DNA of 64,000 bases from Escherichia phage dhaeg: sequence record MN850609.1. One strand, written 5' to 3'. Below, one piece after another: positions 20,727 through 44,772 of this stretch. The position numbers and the translations under genes are program-made. The notes under the pieces were generated by a model, which worked only from the letters and a program-made list of their open reading frames with translations, made no database searches and was not told where the DNA came from. Each line of letters begins with the position of its first letter. Position 1 is the stretch's first letter.

Positions 20727-20748
20727 TATAAATATAATTATATTTATA
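20727..20748. promoter_or_regulatory. divergent late promoter pair (TATAAATA plus strand for 20768 gene; TATAAATA minus strand for uvsW)
   Basis: tataaata at about 20727-20734 and tatttata at about 20741-20748 in the 55-nt divergent intergenic region. Confidence 0.55.
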
Positions 20749-21448: not shown

Positions 21449-22861
21449 ATGGCTTTTACTGTAAGTATAGCCGGCACAGCGTCTATTAAAATAGGCGAAA
21501 GTGCTAACTACACTGCTACCGCAACAGGTGCAGCTGTAGAAGGAACCATTACATATGTATGGTCTATTGATGGTGCTTCTAATCCAGAAGCAACCAATGT
21601 TTTGAAATATACAGGTGCTGCACCTGTAGGTAAGAAAGTTTTAAAAGTAGTAGCAACTTCTACTCCGGCTGAAGGCGAACCTGAGGTAGCTGAAGATACT
21701 TTTGAAGTTACCGTAGCTAATAAGACCATGTCTATTTCTTTGGCTTTGGACCCTATTTCTGTTTCTAAAGAAGTTGGCCAATCTCAAGTTGTTACTGCTA
21801 ACGTGACGGGTGCACCTGCAGGTGCAACAATTGCTTATGTTTGGAAACGTAACACCAGCGTAATCTCTGGCCAAACTGGTAAAACTATTACTGTAACCGA
21901 AGCCGCGGAAGCAAATTACACGTTGAACTGTGAAGTTACTGTTACCGCCCCTGAATATAACCCGGGTACCGCTACTAAAGGTGCTGCGGTAACTTTTGTT
22001 AAGAAAACTATATCAGGTGTTTCTGTTACTTTAACACCGGCCTCAATTAGTACAGAGAAAGACTCATCTGCACAGTTTAAAGCGGATGTAGTCGGCGCTC
22101 CTTCCGGCGTAAATGCAACTTATTCTTGGAAGAAAAACGGTTCTATTATTCCGGGCGAAAGCAGTAATACTCTTGCTGTTGATACGTCTACAATAGGTTC
22201 TTACTCTATTGAAGTTTCGGTACTCCTAAAAGGTACGGATTATAATGATTTAACCGTTACCAAAACAGGAAGTGTAACAATTACTAAAAAGACTATGGCA
22301 GGTGTTTCTGTTAATTTAACGCCTGCTTCTATTACTGTCTCTGAAGGAATCCCGGCTTCTTTTAAAGCCACGGTAGTCGGTGCGCCTAGTGGTGCTACTT
22401 TTGCTTATTCTTGGAAGAAAGATGGTTCACCTGTTGTGGGTGCTACGGATACATTAGTAATTGACACAAGCGCTGAAGGTTCACAGGTTATTGAAGTTTC
22501 TGTTGTGGTTTCGGCTACCGACTATAATTCTGTGACCGTCACAAAATCCGGTAATGTAACAATTACGGCTAAAGTCGCTCCTGAACCAGAGGGCGAACTA
22601 CCTTACGTTCATCCGCTACCAGTTCGTAATTCAGCTTATATTTGGTGTGGTTGGTGGGTTATGGACGAAATTCAGAAAATGACCCTTGAAGGCAAAGACT
22701 GGAAAACTGACGAACCTGATAGTGAATATTATCTCCATCGTTATACCCTTCAAAAAATGGTAGCCGATTATCCTGAGGTTGATGTACAGGAATCTCGTAA
22801 TGGTAGAATTATTCACAGAACCGCTTTGGATGCTGGAATTATTTACGATTACGTTTATTAA
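21449..22861 (+). CDS. hoc: Hoc-like capsid decoration protein with four Ig-like (BIG2-type) repeats
   Basis: 470 aa; four tandem ~90-aa repeats each containing Y(S/V)WK(K/R)(N/D)(G/T)S; C-terminal YIWCGWWVMDEI...DW...YPEVDVQESRNGRII shared with the 23135 ORF. Confidence 0.75.
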   Translation: MAFTVSIAGTASIKIGESANYTATATGAAVEGTITYVWSIDGASNPEATNVLKYTGAAPVGKKVLKVVATSTPAEGEPEVAEDTFEVTVANKTMSISLALDPISVSKEVGQSQVVTANVTGAPAGATIAYVWKRNTSVISGQTGKTITVTEAAEANYTLNCEVTVTAPEYNPGTATKGAAVTFVKKTISGVSVTLTPASISTEKDSSAQFKADVVGAPSGVNATYSWKKNGSIIPGESSNTLAVDTSTIGSYSIEVSVLLKGTDYNDLTVTKTGSVTITKKTMAGVSVNLTPASITVSEGIPASFKATVVGAPSGATFAYSWKKDGSPVVGATDTLVIDTSAEGSQVIEVSVVVSATDYNSVTVTKSGNVTITAKVAPEPEGELPYVHPLPVRNSAYIWCGWWVMDEIQKMTLEGKDWKTDEPDSEYYLHRYTLQKMVADYPEVDVQESRNGRIIHRTALDAGIIYDYVY

Positions 22862-22863
22862 TA

Positions 22864-22881
22864 AAGGGCCGCAAGGCCCTT
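22864..22881 (+). terminator. hairpin aagggcc-gcaa-ggccctt after hoc
   Basis: 7-bp stem directly after the hoc stop; modest T tract. Confidence 0.5.
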
Positions 22882-22946: not shown

Positions 22947-23126
22947 ATGAAATTTAACAAAGATATAGGGTTGTTGGTTTTCTTTATAGTGCTGTTTTTG
23001 TTTTCGTTAATTTCATTAACTAGTGGGTTGTTTGCTTCTATATTGGCTCTTTTCACATGCATTAGTTCCTTTTTTGGGATAATAGCTACTATAGATAAAA
23101 TTTTACATACCAAAAAGGGCCCGTAG
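22947..23126 (+). CDS. small two-helix membrane protein (59 aa), not in the ORF track
   Basis: ATG preceded by AGGTGGA; MKFNKDIGLLVFFIVLFLFSLISLTSGLFASILALFTCISSFFGIIATIDKILHTKKGP; stop lies in the downstream terminator stem. Confidence 0.45.
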   Translation: MKFNKDIGLLVFFIVLFLFSLISLTSGLFASILALFTCISSFFGIIATIDKILHTKKGP

Positions 23127-23133
23127 GCCCTTT
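23114..23133. terminator. bidirectional terminator aaagggcc-cgta-ggcccttt between the convergent hoc-type genes
   Basis: 8-bp stem flanked by A run upstream and T run downstream, so it reads as a terminator on both strands. Confidence 0.65.
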
Positions 23134-23134
23134 A

Positions 23135-24001
23135 TTATTTTTCAGGAGGGACGTAAACTAAGTCTTTCCTTTCTAAGATGTAGCCATTTCTCGACTCTTG
23201 TATCTCTACTTCAGGATACTTAGACAAAAGGTCGGCTACTTTTTGTAACTCACATTTATACTTGTATGGGCTGTTGTTTATATCCAAAGTCCAATCTTCT
23301 CCCAATCTAACGGCTTCTCTTATTTCGTCCCATACCCACCAACCTATCCACATATACGATTCATTTCTTCCACCGCCATAGGGTAAATAAGCATTAAGGT
23401 CGTTATCATATATGAAAGGGCACTGCAATACATCATCCCTAGGTTTTATTTCAACTAAAAGTTCTTCAGAAGCAGGGATATATGCTCCTTCGCAGGTCGC
23501 TATAGATTTTAATGTATAATCTCCAAATTTATCAGGGTCGTCTATTAATATATCAATATCTTCGTCTTTAGATAATTCTACTCCATCTCTATACCATCTA
23601 CAAATTCTTTCGGCATAAGTGGGTTCCACTCTACACGACGGGCGAAGTGAAACTGTTTCTCCTATATTGGCATATATTAATTCCCTAGAGTTTATATCTA
23701 GGACTATTCTTCTTGGAAGGGTACCTATTTCAAGTTCTATTTCGTTACTCTTTGTTATTTCACCACTTTTCTTATTTGTTATGGTCGCATAAAATGTTCC
23801 TGCCGCCGGGAATCCTACTTCCCATAAATTTAATTCAAAAGGGTCTTCGGTAGGAAGTTGTGGAATATGGACATCGTTTTTATACCAATTAATTTCTACG
23901 TCATCTAGAGTAGAACCGGGTGGTAATACAAACCCGGTATAAAAGGTTACTGTCCTGCCAACCAATTCATATCTAGGACCATTTATTTTAAGTACAATCA
24001 T
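23135..24001 (-). CDS. second Hoc-like decoration protein (two Ig-like domains plus shared C-terminal module)
   Basis: 288 aa; Ig-like segments with WYKND / WYRDG motifs; C-terminal YMWIGWWVWDEI...DW...YPEVEIQESRNGYIL parallels the 21449 ORF; strong AAGGAGG SD. Confidence 0.7.
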   Translation of the reverse strand: MIVLKINGPRYELVGRTVTFYTGFVLPPGSTLDDVEINWYKNDVHIPQLPTEDPFELNLWEVGFPAAGTFYATITNKKSGEITKSNEIELEIGTLPRRIVLDINSRELIYANIGETVSLRPSCRVEPTYAERICRWYRDGVELSKDEDIDILIDDPDKFGDYTLKSIATCEGAYIPASEELLVEIKPRDDVLQCPFIYDNDLNAYLPYGGGRNESYMWIGWWVWDEIREAVRLGEDWTLDINNSPYKYKCELQKVADLLSKYPEVEIQESRNGYILERKDLVYVPPEK

Positions 24002-24010
24002 TTAACCTCC

Positions 24011-25516
24011 TTAAAACGTGCTCATATTGGTATGGTCTTCGACAGAAAATAAAACTTCAACAGGGATATCTGTAGTCGTATTAAGAGGGCCGCCTACAAT
24101 AAACACAGATACAGTGTAGTATTTTCTAGTATCACGGTCAAATATTTCGTAACGGTTAAATTGTCTTGCACTAGAATAAGCCAAATCGTCGAATAATTCA
24201 GGAGATGATGACCACAACACATTACTCCAGTTGGCACATTCTATTCCGTTTTCATAGTTGGTAAATCTTTTAATATCAAGCCTATTAGTAAGACCTGCAT
24301 TAGTAGCCCTTATATGGATGCCTACAGATGAGTACATGCGAACATGAAGAACCATATTAAGGTCCCACAAACGTATTTCCTTCCACTCTGAAGTGTTCAG
24401 AGGCTTATCAAATCTTAAAGAGCCTTTCCAATATCTAGGTGGATAGAATGGGAAAAGTTTATCATATAAAGATTTTAATTGAGACTGGGTTAAAGAATCG
24501 ACATCAAATACTGCATCTTTGCCTGGCGCACCTGCAGGACCTATAGGACCTTGAATACCTTGTGGCCCGGGTTCACCCTTTTCACCTTTAGGACCTGGGT
24601 CGCCTTGCGGTCCTTGGGCACCTTGCTCTCCAGGTGCACCATCTTCTCCGGGATTTCCTGGACGCCCTTCTTTTACAAATAAATTCCAATAATCGGCCCA
24701 CAGGTCTCCACTCCCAGGATAACTATCATTATTTGCTATATTATCCTGGATACAAATCCAAGAAGACCCTTCGCACTGGACCAAATCGTTTATATAATAA
24801 GACGAACCAAGGGCCCAGTTTCCGGCCCAGATAAACCCATTACCATCTTGGCCTGGCGCGCCTTGTGGACCTTGAGGGCCGGTTGGGCCTGTTGGTCCTT
24901 GAGGACCTGGTGCACCGATATTAGCCAATAGTGCCCAAACTCCTTCGCTAGGAGGTATTGTTCCTGTATTAGAACTGATGCAAAAATAAGAAGCTCCCTG
25001 GTATCCAACTGCATCGTCTTTAGAGTATTGGGTAGATTCATCCCAGGCTCCCTTCCACACCAAACCTGCCGGGCCTATAGGACCTTGTGGTCCTTGCGGT
25101 CCTACTTCTCCTTGGGCCCCTTGTAAACCCTGAGGGCCTTCTTTTCCTGGTGAACCCGGGTCTCCTTTAGGACCTTCTGGACCTGCTGGTCCTGGTTCGC
25201 CCTTTTCTCCTTTAGGACCGGGGTTACCTTGAATACCTTGCGGCCCTGGGTCTCCTTTAGGGCCTTGTGGACCTTCAGTACCAGGTGTTAGCATCTCATT
25301 AGTTATACCTAAATGGGCCAACGCGCCTTCCCTAGAAGCTTGTTTTATAAATTCAAGTCCATAGCTTTGAGAAGAATCTAGCATAGTAGGGTCTAAGGTG
25401 CTTTCACTAGTGAGTATGTCCACAAATTCCAATGATTTGTTCTGTGGAACTTCTACTAATGATACGCCTCTAAAGTGGCCTCTACCATCATGCCCGTATA
25501 ATGGATTGTCTGACAT
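24011..25516 (-). CDS. collagen-like protein with two CBM5/12-like aromatic modules and a C-terminal globular domain
   Basis: 501 aa; three blocks of uninterrupted Gly-X-Y triplets ([13 protein letters not shown]...) separated by two ~45-aa modules fitting AW-x5-Y-x3-D-x-V-x-Y-x-G-x2-Y-x-C...W; AGGAGA SD; 10 nt upstream of the 23135 ORF. Confidence 0.8.
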
Positions 25517-25526
25517 AAAATCTCCT

Positions 25527-25556
25527 GTTTACAAGTTAAAATTCTCATGTTACTAT
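25527..25556 (+). promoter_or_regulatory. candidate early promoter GTTTAC-18-TACTAT
   Basis: Same hexamer pair as other early promoters in the window; drives the small HTH ORF. Confidence 0.4.
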
Positions 25557-25585
25557 TGAATAGTTCAAATCACAAGAGAACTGTT

Positions 25586-25826: not shown

Positions 25827-25912
25827 GGGTCTAGGTCCTTCCGTTAAACCATTTGGCTTGGTGACAGAAGATTACTAGCTCTTCTATTTAATTATATTTA
25901 TTATGGTGATTT

Positions 25913-26925: not shown

Positions 26926-26947
26926 AAAGGGACCTTACGGTCCCTTT
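26926..26947. terminator. bidirectional terminator aaagggacc-ttac-ggtcccttt between rnlB and the gene 24 paralogue
   Basis: 9-bp stem; T tract downstream on the plus strand and on the minus strand; overlaps the gene 24 paralogue stop codon. Confidence 0.7.
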
Positions 26948-28227
26948 TATTTTTCTAGTGGTGGAAGTTTAACACCGAGATAAGAACTCAACTGGCTTTG
27001 GTTAGCCATTTTGTCCATATCAGAACCATCAATAATGCGGGCTTCTTTATCGTCCTTAGCGACGGTATAAGGGTTTGCAGTCAATGCATAACGAGCAAGC
27101 AATGCTACTGTAGGTTGTAAGCTTTCTGGGTCAACAATAACCTTAAATTCACCTACTGAAGTATCACCTTCTTCATCAACCACATCCAAACCTTCCGTAT
27201 AAGGCGCATAATATAAAGATGCGACCGTCTGTCCTTCACCCATCTGAGCATTTACACCAACAATAACATAATCACATGGACTATTCATATCGGCATAAAG
27301 AGGTAGACCATTCTTTAATACACCATAAGCCAATTCATCTTGGTCTTCCTTTTTCTCAACCCAACCGGATGCAGCGAGAATAGCAGCACAACGAGAACTA
27401 GCTACGGCATAAGTCCCAGCGAAAGAAGTTTGACGTTGGACGGCAGAGTTCATCTCACACATGTAATAATATAATGTACGAGCACGGTCCTGGGCATTAT
27501 CATAACGTGGGTTAGTAAGGTCCAATACGCCCTTTTCAGAAACACCCTGGACTTTAAAACGAGAACTCACTGTAATTAATGACTGTAATACGTCCTTATT
27601 AATTTCTTCTGCCATTTGAATGCCTAGCAGATTTTCAATGAAATTAGGAGCATTAAACCCGTTTGATTCTAGGTCTTGGGCTAATTCGACTGTCAATGAA
27701 GTTTTCAGTTTACGTGATTTAACTTCAGATTGCCATTTGTCAATACGGAAGCCTGCTTCAGCAATTTCAGGATGGCCTTGTTCGAATTTAGAAGTAATAG
27801 CAGCATCTGATACCATACGAATATGCCCAGCGGCCACTGCTTCAGAAATAACTTCACCGAGGTCGGTTTCCGTGGTTCCGGCGAAAGGAGATGCTTCTAG
27901 AACTTTAAACACTACACTTTCAAACTGGAACATATCGCCGGCTGCATAAGCTGTAGACGAATCGGTAAATTCAGGAATATTTTCACGTTCCGACATACCA
28001 ATCTGGCCTGCAAATGTAGCGCCACCAAGATAAGTCATTTTGTCGTCAGGGTTAAGTACACGAACCCCGTACAGAGCAGCAACAGGTTGGCTTGTTTTTT
28101 GTTCAGCAACTAGGGCTTTAAAGATTCGTTTATTAGTTGCTTGGGTGTATGAAAGAAGAGCAGGACGGCCAACCGAGTTGGCAGCCGTCAATGTGGATTC
28201 TTTAATTAGGTCTATAATCTTAGACAT
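26947..28227 (-). CDS. capsid vertex protein gp24 paralogue (divergent second copy)
   Basis: 426 aa; colinear with the adjacent gp24 at roughly half identity by eye (SVGRPALL.. vs SLGRPNLV.., conserved LKTxLTVELAQDLESNGF, ANPYTVAKDDKEARIIDG); 1-nt TAATG overlap. Confidence 0.85.
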   Translation of the reverse strand: MSKIIDLIKESTLTAANSVGRPALLSYTQATNKRIFKALVAEQKTSQPVAALYGVRVLNPDDKMTYLGGATFAGQIGMSERENIPEFTDSSTAYAAGDMFQFESVVFKVLEASPFAGTTETDLGEVISEAVAAGHIRMVSDAAITSKFEQGHPEIAEAGFRIDKWQSEVKSRKLKTSLTVELAQDLESNGFNAPNFIENLLGIQMAEEINKDVLQSLITVSSRFKVQGVSEKGVLDLTNPRYDNAQDRARTLYYYMCEMNSAVQRQTSFAGTYAVASSRCAAILAASGWVEKKEDQDELAYGVLKNGLPLYADMNSPCDYVIVGVNAQMGEGQTVASLYYAPYTEGLDVVDEEGDTSVGEFKVIVDPESLQPTVALLARYALTANPYTVAKDDKEARIIDGSDMDKMANQSQLSSYLGVKLPPLEK

Positions 28228-29510
28228 TAATCAGCCTCGTAAATAATTGCTGGAAGTTTAACACCAAGCAGATAAGACATATTACTCTGACCAGCCATTA
28301 AATCCATATTGGTTGCATCGATAACACGAGCTTCTTTATCGTCTTTAGCTACGGTGTACGGGTTAGCGGACAGTGCATAACGAACCATCAGAGAAATAGA
28401 AGGCTGTAATGAATCCGGGTCGACAATAACCTTATAAGCACCAACGTGTTCTTGGTCGTCTAAATCCAGGCCTTCTGTATATGGGGCATAGAAAATAGAA
28501 CCGACAACTTCATTACCACCATAGTTCTCTTTAACACCTACGATAACATAATCCAATGGGCTGTTAACGTCACAGAACAGAGGTAATCCATTCAACAAAT
28601 AACCATAGGCCGTTTCTGGGAGCCAATTATTATCTTCAGGTCTATGTTTTAACCAGCCAGAACCTGCAAGCATTGCAGCCACACGACTTGAAGCCACAAC
28701 AAACGTACCCGAATAAGAAGTAGTTTTCTGGATTTCAGAATTCATCTCACAAACAATTTCATAAAGTTTACGTGCAGATTCTGGAGCACTATCATAAGTC
28801 AAATCGATGATGCCATTATCAGATACACCCGTAACTTTATAGCGTTTGGATACGGTTATTAGAGATTGCAGAACATCTTTATTAATTTCATCTGCCATTA
28901 CTGTAGCCAGGAGGTCTTCTAAGAATGCAGGGGCGTCGAAGCCATTTGATTCCATATCCTGTGCTAATTCTACGGTCAAAGCAGTCTTCAATTTACGGGT
29001 CTTAACAGGGGCATTCCATTTATTAACCTGGAATACAGCATCAGAGATTTCTACATCACTCTCTTCAAATTTAGTGGTATGGGCTGCATCAGGAACCAAA
29101 CGACACGTTAATGACACCAAACCTTCTTGAAGAGCATCGGCCAATTCTGTAGCGCTAGTGGATGCGAGTGGGCTTGCTTGAAGAGCCTTATAAACCACAT
29201 TCTGATACTTAAAGTAGTCACCCTTGGCAATCGCCTGGGCTTTATCTGTGAGTTCCGGGATAGTTTCACGGTCTTTAGAACCAACTTCACCACCATAAAC
29301 TGCACCGGTTTGGAAACTGAATTCATTATCAGGGGTAAGATATTTGACACCATACAACGCAGCGATAGGTTGGTTTGTACGTTGTTCAGCGATGATATCG
29401 CGATAAATTAGTTTAGTGGTAGCACGGGTCAAAGCAACAAGATTAGGGCGACCCAATGAGTTGCTGGTAGTAGTTGTTGACTCGCGCAGTAATTCGTTAA
29501 TCTTTGCCAT
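28227..29510 (-). CDS. 24: capsid vertex protein gp24
   Basis: 427 aa; MAKINELLRESTTT...SIFYAPYTEGLDLDD...LGVKLP closely matches remembered T4 gp24; LRE near the N-terminus consistent with gp21 processing. Confidence 0.92.
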   Translation of the reverse strand: MAKINELLRESTTTTSNSLGRPNLVALTRATTKLIYRDIIAEQRTNQPIAALYGVKYLTPDNEFSFQTGAVYGGEVGSKDRETIPELTDKAQAIAKGDYFKYQNVVYKALQASPLASTSATELADALQEGLVSLTCRLVPDAAHTTKFEESDVEISDAVFQVNKWNAPVKTRKLKTALTVELAQDMESNGFDAPAFLEDLLATVMADEINKDVLQSLITVSKRYKVTGVSDNGIIDLTYDSAPESARKLYEIVCEMNSEIQKTTSYSGTFVVASSRVAAMLAGSGWLKHRPEDNNWLPETAYGYLLNGLPLFCDVNSPLDYVIVGVKENYGGNEVVGSIFYAPYTEGLDLDDQEHVGAYKVIVDPDSLQPSISLMVRYALSANPYTVAKDDKEARVIDATNMDLMAGQSNMSYLLGVKLPAIIYEAD

Positions 29511-29538: not shown

Positions 29539-29546
29539 TATTTATA
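29539..29546 (-). promoter_or_regulatory. late promoter TATAAATA for gene 24
   Basis: Reverse complement of tatttata about 29 nt upstream of the gene 24 ATG. Confidence 0.6.
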
Positions 29547-42702: not shown

Positions 42703-44772
42703 TTATGGTGCTGAGTTTAAAGTCACAAAATCAGACAATAATACCCATGCGTTATCAACCAGAACGTACGGGAGTCCGTCTGCAGCAGGAGCCACCGGCG
42801 GACGTTTAGCTAATTCTGTTTCTAAGGCTGTAATTTTACCTTCGGCGGTGGTTAAACGGGTTCCTAAATCGGCAACTTTATCCGATTCAACCTTAACTGC
42901 GGCTAAATCGGACTGAAGGGTAGTTATTTTACCTTCAGCTGTTGTTACACGAGTTGTTAAAGGAGCTATTTTAGCGGTATCTAATTTAATATCAGTAATT
43001 TCGCCTTCATTAGCTGCTACTCGCCCGGTTAAAGTAACGATATCACCTTTATTCTTGGTTATATCGGCTTTAATAGGGGTTAATTGTGATTCTATAGAAC
43101 TCACATCTAAAGCCAAAGCCGTAACATCAGAATCGGTTGTATCCGTCTTGGTTTCCAATGCGGTTATTTTGCCATTAATAGTTACGTCACTTTCTTCCAA
43201 AGCAGTAATACGATTATCTTGCTCAGTGTCTTTGGATTTTAACAAAACAACATCGGCTTTAATTTCTCCTACTGAAGTGTTTAAAGCACCAGTTCTGGTA
43301 TCAAGAGAAGAAATGGAGGCGTCATTAGTATCGACTCTAGCCGTTAAGGCTGATACCTTACCATCAGTAACCAATAAAGAAGCTTTTACTGCATCGATTT
43401 CTGTAGTACCATCAAGGATTTCCGTCCATGCCGAATCCTTACGTCCATACAATTTACCATCAGTAGGTGCTTCACCCAATTTAGTAGGCATCTGAGCTTC
43501 AAGGCCTTTAACCGAGTTTATTAATCCTCGTTCTTCTACGGTACTACCGTTAGGGTTGGTTCCTTCAATTTGGTTGGTGATTTTAAGAATAGAACCTTTG
43601 ATGCCTGTTTGGTTATTACCAATTTCGGCCTGCAAATCCTGAATAGTAGAGGCTGAAGTATTGCCTTGAGTTGTAAGGTCGTTCAAACGTTTATTGATTG
43701 TTCCTGCTGCCGGACTCACATCCGCACCGATTTTACGGTCTATATCAGAAACCTGGAAACGAAGCCCTTCAGATGAACTAGCACCAACTATGGTTTTTAA
43801 CTCATTAACATCAGTACGCAAGCCGCCCAATCTGCCGTTAATAGACGTAGGGGTATCGGCAGTACCGATGGCAGTTTCTACTGCAGTAACCCTAGGGACC
43901 AATCCATTATTAACAGTGTTTTCTAAAGTAGACGTTTTAGTTTCTAATGTAGTTACTCTGGTATCAATAGAGCCCTTATTAAAGCCTATACTGGTTTTGA
44001 TAGAATCTATCGATTCATTAAAGTTTACGGCTGCCGTTTCGAGAGCTGAAATTCTAGTATAAGCAGGTTGTTTACCTACCGTATCAATATGTGGACCAAG
44101 TTCTTCACGAATTTCGTTAAGTTTAAGCCCAAGTTGACCTACATCAGAATCTTCATAATTCTTTTCAAGGGTATCTATACGTTGCGAATGGTCGACAATA
44201 GCACTGGTATTATCCATAATACGACGTTTCATACCGGTGGCTTCAGAAGTTTCACCGGGAGGAAGCGGCTGGCTGTTTATATCTTGGTTTGCATAATGGC
44301 CAATTTCTGATTTAAGAAGATTTATATTTTCTCTAACAGTGAGATACGGGCCATCTAAAGACGGGTCATAATAACCGACATCTTCTTCTAAAAAATTAAA
44401 ATTAACTGTTAAGTCGCCTAAGTCCTTTTTAGTCTCGGAAGCCTTTTCATCTACAGCCAATATATCGACACGGTTCTTTTCAATTTGCTGAATAACAGCC
44501 GTATCAGTAGAAATATCAAGGGCTTCATTAATCAAATTAACGTTATCCACAAGCTCGTTAATTTTGTCTTTAGAAGCTATGCTGTTTTCTTCTAATCTAA
44601 CTACGTTAGTTTGTACTCCTAAAGCAGGGGCATTCAAATTACCGTCGTGACCGTATTTAGTCGTGGCTCCTTCAATACATTCGCCATTGCGTATCCAACG
44701 GATACGCTCTTGGGATGCATCAGGTACACCATCGACAAACGGAAGTTCTTTAATACTCAGTTTGTCAATCAT
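42703..44772 (-). CDS. wac: fibritin (whisker / neck fibre, wac), extended form
   Basis: 689 aa, largely coiled-coil; C-terminal foldon-like ...APAADGLPYVLVDNAWVLLSDF (T4 foldon [20 protein letters not shown]); between 12 and 13. Confidence 0.8.
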   Translation of the reverse strand: MIDKLSIKELPFVDGVPDASQERIRWIRNGECIEGATTKYGHDGNLNAPALGVQTNVVRLEENSIASKDKINELVDNVNLINEALDISTDTAVIQQIEKNRVDILAVDEKASETKKDLGDLTVNFNFLEEDVGYYDPSLDGPYLTVRENINLLKSEIGHYANQDINSQPLPPGETSEATGMKRRIMDNTSAIVDHSQRIDTLEKNYEDSDVGQLGLKLNEIREELGPHIDTVGKQPAYTRISALETAAVNFNESIDSIKTSIGFNKGSIDTRVTTLETKTSTLENTVNNGLVPRVTAVETAIGTADTPTSINGRLGGLRTDVNELKTIVGASSSEGLRFQVSDIDRKIGADVSPAAGTINKRLNDLTTQGNTSASTIQDLQAEIGNNQTGIKGSILKITNQIEGTNPNGSTVEERGLINSVKGLEAQMPTKLGEAPTDGKLYGRKDSAWTEILDGTTEIDAVKASLLVTDGKVSALTARVDTNDASISSLDTRTGALNTSVGEIKADVVLLKSKDTEQDNRITALEESDVTINGKITALETKTDTTDSDVTALALDVSSIESQLTPIKADITKNKGDIVTLTGRVAANEGEITDIKLDTAKIAPLTTRVTTAEGKITTLQSDLAAVKVESDKVADLGTRLTTAEGKITALETELAKRPPVAPAADGLPYVLVDNAWVLLSDFVTLNSAP

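Follow-up and report, generated by a model that had tools for sequence, protein, structure and literature searches.

The closest described counterparts of the system reported here are the head decorations of phages SPP1, T4 and phi29 and the collagen-like tail fibres of coliphages. SPP1 gp12 is an elongated trimeric spike with Gly-X-Y (G-X-Y) repeats, located on capsid hexamers and with a presumed part in adhesion to surfaces (PMC7602432), phi29 gp8.5 forms trimeric, dispensable head fibres that are thought to help ordered attachment to the cell wall (PMC7602432), and T4 Hoc is a monomeric string of immunoglobulin-like (Ig-like) domains of about 18 nm, with a region around ESRNG (Glu-Ser-Arg-Asn-Gly) as the conserved capsid-binding element of the Hoc family (PMC10385173). 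Among coliphages, phi24B gp61 and the collagen-like proteins of E. coli O157 prophages combine a collagen shaft with a small C-terminal globular domain (PMC3368898). A survey of Hoc proteins from 2023 recorded a second, shorter Hoc in some phages and does not mention a collagen partner (PMC10385173). Here we describe a fibre gene of Escherichia phage dhaeg (MN850609.1) and its Hoc-type neighbour, found in a stretch of 64,000 nucleotides (nt), hereafter the window, of this T4-like Dhakavirus genome. The gene encodes a collagen-like protein with two knobs resembling carbohydrate-binding modules (CBM) of families 5/12, and recurs together with the gene of a short Hoc paralogue, Hoc-2, as a conserved cassette. 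With a probability that we put at about one half, its product would be a trimeric head fibre of ~50-60 nm, docked on the capsid via its cognate Hoc-2 and acting as a reversible adhesin.

The fibre open reading frame (ORF) occupies positions 24011-25516 on the minus strand, a strand that the first-pass annotation had not given, and encodes a protein of 501 amino acids (aa) from an ATG start preceded by a Shine-Dalgarno element AGGAG at 25522..25526 (aaacAGGAGattttATG). Its closest relatives are dhabil_240, a "hypothetical protein" of Escherichia phage dhabil (99.9% identity), and the counterpart in phage CLB_P2 (96% identity). The protein begins with an N-terminal domain of 78 aa (aa 1-78; 25283..25516), characterized by the motif G-H-(D/N)-G-(R/L)-G-x-(F/Y)-x-G, which is invariant in an alignment of 15 homologues (A4). 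It continues with collagen block 1 (aa 79-153; 25058..25282; 25 G-X-Y triplets, ~21 nm if triple-helical), CBM5/12-like module 1 (aa 154-200, 47 aa; 24917..25057), collagen block 2 (aa 201-227; 24836..24916; nine triplets), CBM5/12-like module 2 (aa 228-283, 56 aa; 24668..24835), collagen block 3 (aa 284-334; 24515..24667; 17 triplets) and a C-terminal tip domain (aa 335-501, 167 aa; 24014..24514). The layout read from the DNA by the first-pass annotation, namely three G-X-Y blocks, two modules and a C-terminal domain in a 501-aa protein, was thus borne out, and the profile searches agreed with it, with 83.5 bits for Pfam Collagen (PF01391; cut-off 27.2) and 37.8 bits, in two stretches, for Pfam CBM_5_12 (PF02839; cut-off 26.2). 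All 51 triplets fall into the three blocks without a gap, and the run of 25 is beyond chance, given a longest run of 7 triplets in 5000 shuffles of the same protein. What the first-pass annotation did not contain is the conserved pairing with Hoc and the finding that homologues can lack the collagen and CBM parts.

The gene of Hoc-2 (288 aa; 23135-24001, minus strand) starts 9 nt downstream of the fibre stop codon. Its product consists of two Ig-like domains (Ig1 and Ig2) and a C-terminal capsid-binding domain with ESRNG; it matches PHROG 1149 ('Hoc-like head decoration', E = 6e-43), retains QESRNG in an alignment with 11 homologues, as members of the Hoc family do, and gives a weak match to Pfam Ig_2 (E = 0.007). 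The Shine-Dalgarno element GGAGG of hoc-2 (24006..24010, minus strand) lies within the 9-nt spacer (TAA GGAGGTTAA ATG), and a single intrinsic terminator, a strong hairpin GGGCC-TAC-GGGCCC followed by TTTTT (23114..23133, minus strand), closes the pair. Judged by these signals, the fibre gene and hoc-2 form a two-gene operon bounded by the terminator, in agreement with the first-pass proposal of co-expression with the adjacent Hoc-like gene.

About 13 diverged lineages of T4-like phages share the fibre and Hoc pair. The distance between the two genes is -11 to +11 nt in the window, JS10 and ABTNLsp5 (Dhakavirus), TH15 (Gaprivervirus), CGG4-1 (Gelderlandvirus), Cronus and FBB1 (Roskildevirus), Pantoea phage Phynn, and Aeromonas phages 65, AS4 and GomatiRiver_11, and the same adjacency was found in the metagenome loci L015, L021, L022 and L023. 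In Aeromonas phage 65, a member of a different subfamily, the pair has been relocated beside tk and its fibre and hoc genes share 4 nt. Of 50,697 phage records, 25 contain the fibre N-domain, all of them T4-like and none listed as Tequatrovirus, which accords with the earlier remark that the gene is foreign to the T4 gene set. The Ig1 domain of Hoc-2 was detected in 22 of the 50,697 records, 20 of which are common to the N-domain list; two IME08 records on the Ig1 list carry the N-domain as well, found at lower stringency. A scan of IMG/VR with the GHDGRG motif yielded only four isolates, all already known.

Losses and duplications affect the two genes jointly. PspYZU05 has a 49-aa fibre stub beside a Hoc stub that lacks Ig1, and in AP1 the fibre stub has 78 aa, no hoc being annotated in its vicinity. 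Two tandem cassettes follow each other on metagenome contig SRR30535871_24132 (L015, 5001-9993), with fibre and Hoc of 570 aa + 290 aa and then of 498 aa + 287 aa; they differ in fibre N-termini, tips and Hoc Ig1 domains. IME08 was considered as an exception to the pairing and dismissed, its case being explained by a frameshifted fibre and a deletion remnant. In IME08 (locus L009, 4417-4494 and 1591-1800), 25 in-frame codons of a window-type fibre gene remain directly upstream of hoc-2, and in a second fibre gene, after gene 24b, the N-domain is frameshifted from the collagen part, which could be pseudogenisation or a sequencing error. To judge from these genomes, the two genes travel together, can be arrayed in tandem and degenerate jointly.

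Natural domain swaps indicate which end of the fibre the Hoc partner follows. The tips of the window fibre and of JS10 belong to separate sequence types, neither of which is retrieved by a search with the other, whereas their N-domains are 47% and their Hoc Ig1 domains 51% identical; conversely, the tips of JS10 and VR25 are 56% identical, whereas their N-termini and Hoc Ig1 domains are without detectable similarity. Because of these swaps, the Hoc partner is considered to follow the fibre N-terminus and not the tip. In FBB1, which belongs to the same genus as Cronus, and in Phynn, GHDGLG replaces GHDGRG and Ig1 has also diverged. Both types of cassette stand one after the other on metagenome contig L015. 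The Hoc-2 of Cronus has lost its second Ig domain and kept Ig1 and the capsid-binding domain. Tracking of the N-terminus is what a relation of anchor and socket predicts, and it argues against a chaperone or adhesin bound to the tip. Chaperone or adhesin genes do commonly follow fibre genes, as in T-even gp37/gp38 and lambda stf/tfa, and translation of the fibre gene is closely linked with that of hoc-2, so that Hoc-2 could be pictured as an assembly chaperone or tip-bound partner, comparable to tail-fibre assembly proteins and T2 gp38, instead of a capsid anchor. Such a role is very improbable for a protein that keeps the full capsid-binding domain with ESRNG and whose identity goes with the opposite end of the fibre.

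A second alternative also places the fibre on the head and lets its N-domain bind the capsomers of the major capsid protein directly, in the manner of SPP1 gp12, with Hoc-2 as an independent, co-regulated decoration. SPP1 gp12, a trimer at hexamer centres with predicted collagen-like repeats, offers a precedent (PMC7602432), a trimer would suit a sixfold or threefold capsid site better than the monomeric Hoc does, and a homologue in the siphovirus AugustePiccard has a different N-terminus and no detected Hoc partner of the ESRNG type. Direct binding would leave unexplained why Ig1 changes whenever the fibre N-terminus changes, why the fibre and the Ig1 of Hoc-2 are lost together, and why the Hoc-2 of Cronus retains precisely Ig1 and the capsid-binding domain, and we regard it as unlikely.

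The fibre itself contains no recognizable Hoc capsid-binding domain, as its N- and C-terminal domains taken alone match no family in Pfam or PHROG, and the N-domain has no PDB match either. A PHROG scan of the whole fibre matched 48 families, and among the best 25 of these 48, which were examined, no Hoc PHROG occurs. One match is to PHROG 5073, 'tail fiber protein', over residues 3-226 (E = 1.8e-83), and many other tail-fibre PHROGs are matched through the collagen and CBM parts. The name of PHROG 5073 is an annotation transfer and not a tested location; since the N-domain alone matches no PHROG, the label is best traced to the generic collagen/CBM body.

The two knobs are related to the CBM5/12 modules of chitin-active enzymes. 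Taken alone, module 1 scores 26.5 bits with CBM_5_12, just above the cut-off, and module 2 scores 23.0, below it; each aligns to profile positions 1 to 28 or 31 of 44. In a family profile built from 14 modules (alignment A3), positions occupied by W, Y, V, G, P and W are invariant, Y14 and W44 being conserved in 14/14 modules. In PDB, this profile matches the CBM12 of a Vibrio chitin deacetylase (E = 7e-4); ChiA1 of Bacillus circulans is matched in its chitin-binding domain (1ED7; E = 1.5e-3), over residues 2-43 of 45. On the grounds of these matches to chitinase and deacetylase domains, the modules are assigned to the CBM5/12 sequence superfamily. The hydrophobic core of CBM5/12/73 domains consists of two conserved aromatics, Tyr and Trp (PMC8449059), to which the invariant Tyr and Trp of the fibre modules correspond; Gly and Pro are likewise shared with the ChiA1 domain. 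The setting differs, as the CBM5/12 domains of chitinases are enzyme appendages, whereas the fibre modules sit between collagen segments.

The likeness is less clear at the surface aromatic residues that serve chitin binding, namely the loop residue Trp687 of ChiA1 and the Tyr-Trp pair of CBM5. In ChiA1, Trp687, which precedes the conserved Pro, was implicated in chitin binding by a study cited in PMC8449059. The position aligned with this Trp (of DWAP/GWEP), an equivalence judged from the alignment, is never aromatic in module 1, where the members of the family have T, N, V, I or K; in module 2, a Tyr stands one residue away. As module 1 is without an aromatic residue at this position and module 2 has only the nearby Tyr, canonical binding of chitin or other glycans by the knobs is doubtful. 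Module 1 is kept in most homologues that have a collagen stalk, and module 2 is optional, being limited to the window type, CGG4-1, ABTNLsp5 and P0001/P0002.

The tip domain has no relative in Pfam, PHROG or PDB at the sequence level, a PDB profile search included. A search of 1.84 billion representative proteins listed 13 matches, one of which, P0012 (repetitive, 734 aa), is evidently spurious; of the other 12, 10 share the N-domain of the window fibre, P0002 is a fragment that lacks the N-terminal part and P0010 consists of the tip alone. An AlphaFold2 model built with an alignment of these matches (mean predicted local distance difference test score, pLDDT, 83; predicted template modelling score, pTM, 0.72) has a short helix at residues 10-23 of the domain, followed by a beta-sandwich of ten strands. 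Tip positions Leu16 and Leu20 are invariant and Leu8 nearly so, from which we infer that the helix may form a trimeric neck. In a library of viral models, the tip matches its own family and, more weakly, the type-B tip of JS10, to which it is unrelated in sequence (E = 2e-5, template modelling score 0.54) and collagen-like proteins of siphoviruses, matches which point to a phage-specific fold. A C1q-type head was considered and rejected on fold, neither the ten-strand jelly roll of C1q/TNF-like heads nor a C1q profile match having been found. The resemblance to C1q seen by the first-pass annotation therefore holds for the architecture of collagen stalk and globular head and fails for the fold of the C-terminal domain. 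Collectins, C1q and Bacillus BclA are laid out like the fibre, with an anchor at the N-terminus, a stalk of collagen and a globular domain for recognition at the C-terminus; in the model, the helix between collagen and head resembles a collectin neck, and the order of collagen, helical neck and head appears closer to the collectin layout.

The body of the fibre is modular. Among the homologues, the stalk can be absent or exceed 70 triplets, the number of knobs varies between zero and three, and the Phynn homologue is reduced to N-domain and tip, without collagen or CBM, so that the stalk can be viewed as an optional spacer. The fibre genes of the window and CLB_P2 (L025) differ at 61 nt, all but 12 of them in module 2 and collagen block 3 (24515-24835; 49 nt in 107 codons, ~15%), whereas the other 316 codons of stalk and tip contain 2 nt differences and the tips are identical. 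Since the divergence is confined to these two elements, a recombination patch inside the gene is indicated. Beyond the T4-like phages, AugustePiccard has the same body (collagen, CBM, collagen, type-B tip) behind its different N-terminus, directly upstream of the major capsid gene. In this phage (Bas01, Drexlerviridae; L027, 2591-5396), the collagen/CBM/type-B protein is encoded between the major capsid gene and that of a 429-aa 'head outer capsid protein', which carries GDS(Y) and DxxH motifs like those of GDSL/SGNH esterases. On the non-T4-like metagenome contig ERR11507158_14221 (L016, 1559-2471), a type-A tip is found on a collagen fibre with an unrelated N-terminus; this fibre gene follows a 330-aa ORF, and its tip is in another frame than the collagen part (frameshift or sequencing error). 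Homologous type-B tips also occur in tail-fibre contexts, namely in phage A5-4 (Vequintavirinae) and phage PAS7 (Autographiviridae). Because the body is mounted on another N-terminus in AugustePiccard and type-B tips recur in the tail-fibre contexts of A5-4 and PAS7, the body is best seen as a generic adhesin cassette for which the N-terminus decides the mounting site.

These tail-fibre contexts, the PHROG assignments and the existence of collagen-like lateral tail fibres such as phi24B gp61 would also fit an accessory tail or neck fibre, mounted on the baseplate, the collar or the long tail fibres, to which the Hoc gene would be a mere co-resident of a variable region. Such a location is unlikely, although it deserves serious consideration, given that the PHROG label comes from the generic body, that a Hoc paralogue has remained the neighbour in about 13 diverged lineages, also after relocation, and that the Hoc type tracks the fibre N-terminus. 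In addition, the gene lies between genes 24/rnlB and hoc/inh, that is, in the head block and not in the tail-fibre cluster, and the phage already has a canonical fibritin (42703-44772) and a short tail fibre. Of the two sites suggested by the first-pass annotation, capsid or neck, the conserved pairing with Hoc thus favours the capsid, and the presence of the phage's own fibritin and short tail fibre speaks against the neck.

Set against the described systems, the fibre combines features that occur separately elsewhere. SPP1 gp12 is very short and binds directly to the capsid; the window fibre has 501 aa, with two CBM5/12-type knobs set between its three collagen blocks, a tip with a beta-sandwich fold and a dedicated Hoc paralogue as apparent adaptor. 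Collagen-like repeats, a trimer on the head and a part in adhesion are common to gp12 (PMC7602432) and the proposed fibre, as an analogy only. With T4 Hoc the fibre shares its genomic neighbourhood and a proposed dispensable role in surface adhesion, and its partner is a true member of the Hoc family; the fibre differs in being a collagen-type, presumably trimeric protein, two to three times longer and without a Hoc capsid-binding domain of its own. The phi29 gp8.5 fibres are alpha-helical supercoils at quasi-threefold sites and, unlike the window fibre, are devoid of collagen, CBM and adaptor. Collagen-like coliphage tail fibres come close in their tips, homologues of which occur in other coliphages; the fibre is set apart from them by its N-terminal anchor, its place in a block of head genes and its obligate Hoc partner.

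In the proposed Hoc-anchored head fibre, the collagen blocks of three chains would combine into three triple-helical segments with a total length of ~44 nm (0.286 nm per residue), and each chain would loop out sideways at two points into a CBM5/12-type knob, giving three knobs per level. The short helical neck and the beta-sandwich tip would end the fibre, for a whole length of ~50-60 nm (44 nm of helix plus knobs, neck and tip). The 78-residue N-domain would serve as the virion anchor, docking most likely on the membrane-distal Ig-like domain of Hoc-2, whose C-terminal ESRNG domain would bind the centre of major-capsid-protein hexamers. Hoc-2 would thereby act as an adaptor that makes the Hoc site a socket for a long fibre. 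In one speculative geometry, a single trimer would sit over a local threefold axis, held by three Hoc-2 molecules that belong to adjoining hexamers. The fibre may then function as a weak, multivalent and reversible adhesin for host-cell or environmental surfaces, raising the encounter rate; such a role has likewise been proposed for Hoc, the phi29 head fibres and SPP1 gp12.

Several points weigh against this proposal. The stoichiometry is awkward, a Hoc monomer at a quasi-sixfold site having to hold a trimeric fibre, and both the 'tail fiber protein' label and the type-B tips of A5-4 and PAS7 lead towards the tail. The contact between N-domain and Ig1 is deduced from genomic context, and co-variation of linked fibre and hoc genes is in itself not proof of contact. 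In particular, the mirror-tree correlations of the N-domain with Ig1 (r = 0.76) and with the capsid-binding domain (r = 0.54) are weak evidence, since linked genes co-vary through a shared recombination history without any contact. No virion proteomics, imaging or binding data for family members were found in the searchable literature on JS98, JS10, VR7, CLB_P2 and the Aeromonas phages. Finally, the canonical late promoter TATAAATA was not found within ~4 kb upstream of the fibre gene on the coding strand; the closest copy on the minus strand of the window stands at 29539-29546, ahead of gene 24a, and JS10 likewise has none before its fibre gene.

The lack of a late promoter consensus directly upstream in the window phage, together with the natural dispensability of the gene, of which IME08 keeps a 25-codon remnant, could be taken to mean that the fibre is a non-virion protein, intracellular or released at lysis, for instance a matrix or decoy. 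This is the most improbable of the explanations considered: TATAAATA is present upstream of the fibre homologues of ABTNLsp5 (at -42) and Phynn (at -75), the gene points the same way as the late genes 23/24 and shares its transcript with that of a Hoc structural protein, and fibres anchored by their N-terminus are typically virion proteins. A comparison of the sequence before the fibre gene (25517-25585, minus strand) with that of ABTNLsp5 (L008) revealed the same TTGTAAACAGG, followed in ABTNLsp5 by TATAAATAG. A sigma-70-like match lies at 25920-25891, and an AATAAATA / TATAAT-like element at ~25891-25905.

Besides hoc-2, the window encodes the canonical long Hoc (470 aa; 21449..22861, plus strand; PHROG 1149, E = 2e-123; Pfam Ig domains). 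This gene converges on the fibre-hoc-2 operon and adjoins inh, as in JS10 and related records; it lies outside the cassette, and its product would use the same class of capsid site. Two copies of TATAAATA stand back to back in the intergenic region between uvsW and inh, at 20727-20734 (plus strand) and 20741-20748 (minus strand), the former placed to drive inh and the long hoc. Between the convergent terminators of the two hoc genes (22864-22881 and 23114-23133), a strongly hydrophobic ORF of 59 aa is found at 22947-23126 on the plus strand; for this region, dhabil has only a shorter, opposite-strand hypothetical ORF annotated, and CLB_P2 a hypothetical gene of 204 nt. On the minus strand, two tandem paralogues of the head vertex protein gp24 are encoded at 26947-28227 (426 aa) and 28227-29510 (427 aa). 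The gp24 pair is also present in many cassette carriers (JS10, IME08, CGG4-1, Cronus and ABTNLsp5), and PspYZU05, which has cassette stubs only, possesses a single copy.

Public records already contain the fibre gene, under vague names, and the conserved fibre-Hoc cassette and the implied use of Hoc as an adaptor appear to be undescribed in the searchable literature. Going beyond the single fibre, we tentatively propose, as a generalization that falls somewhat short of even odds, an exchangeable two-component cassette in which the outermost Ig domain of a Hoc paralogue would be the socket for a trimeric collagen-like adhesin of ~50-60 nm; swapping stalk length, CBM knobs or tip would then re-target the capsid and turn it into a second programmable adhesion organelle besides the tail. 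Hoc-type decorations are the proposed basis both of phage adherence to mucus and of capsid display technology. If the proposal is true, Hoc sites can serve as sockets for other proteins, and the fibre N-domain and Hoc-2 would offer a ready-made pair of anchor and adaptor for display engineering. One carrier of the cassette, CLB_P2, is used in phage studies in the mouse gut, and a capsid-borne adhesin would, on the same condition, join the factors that shape host encounter and gut persistence.

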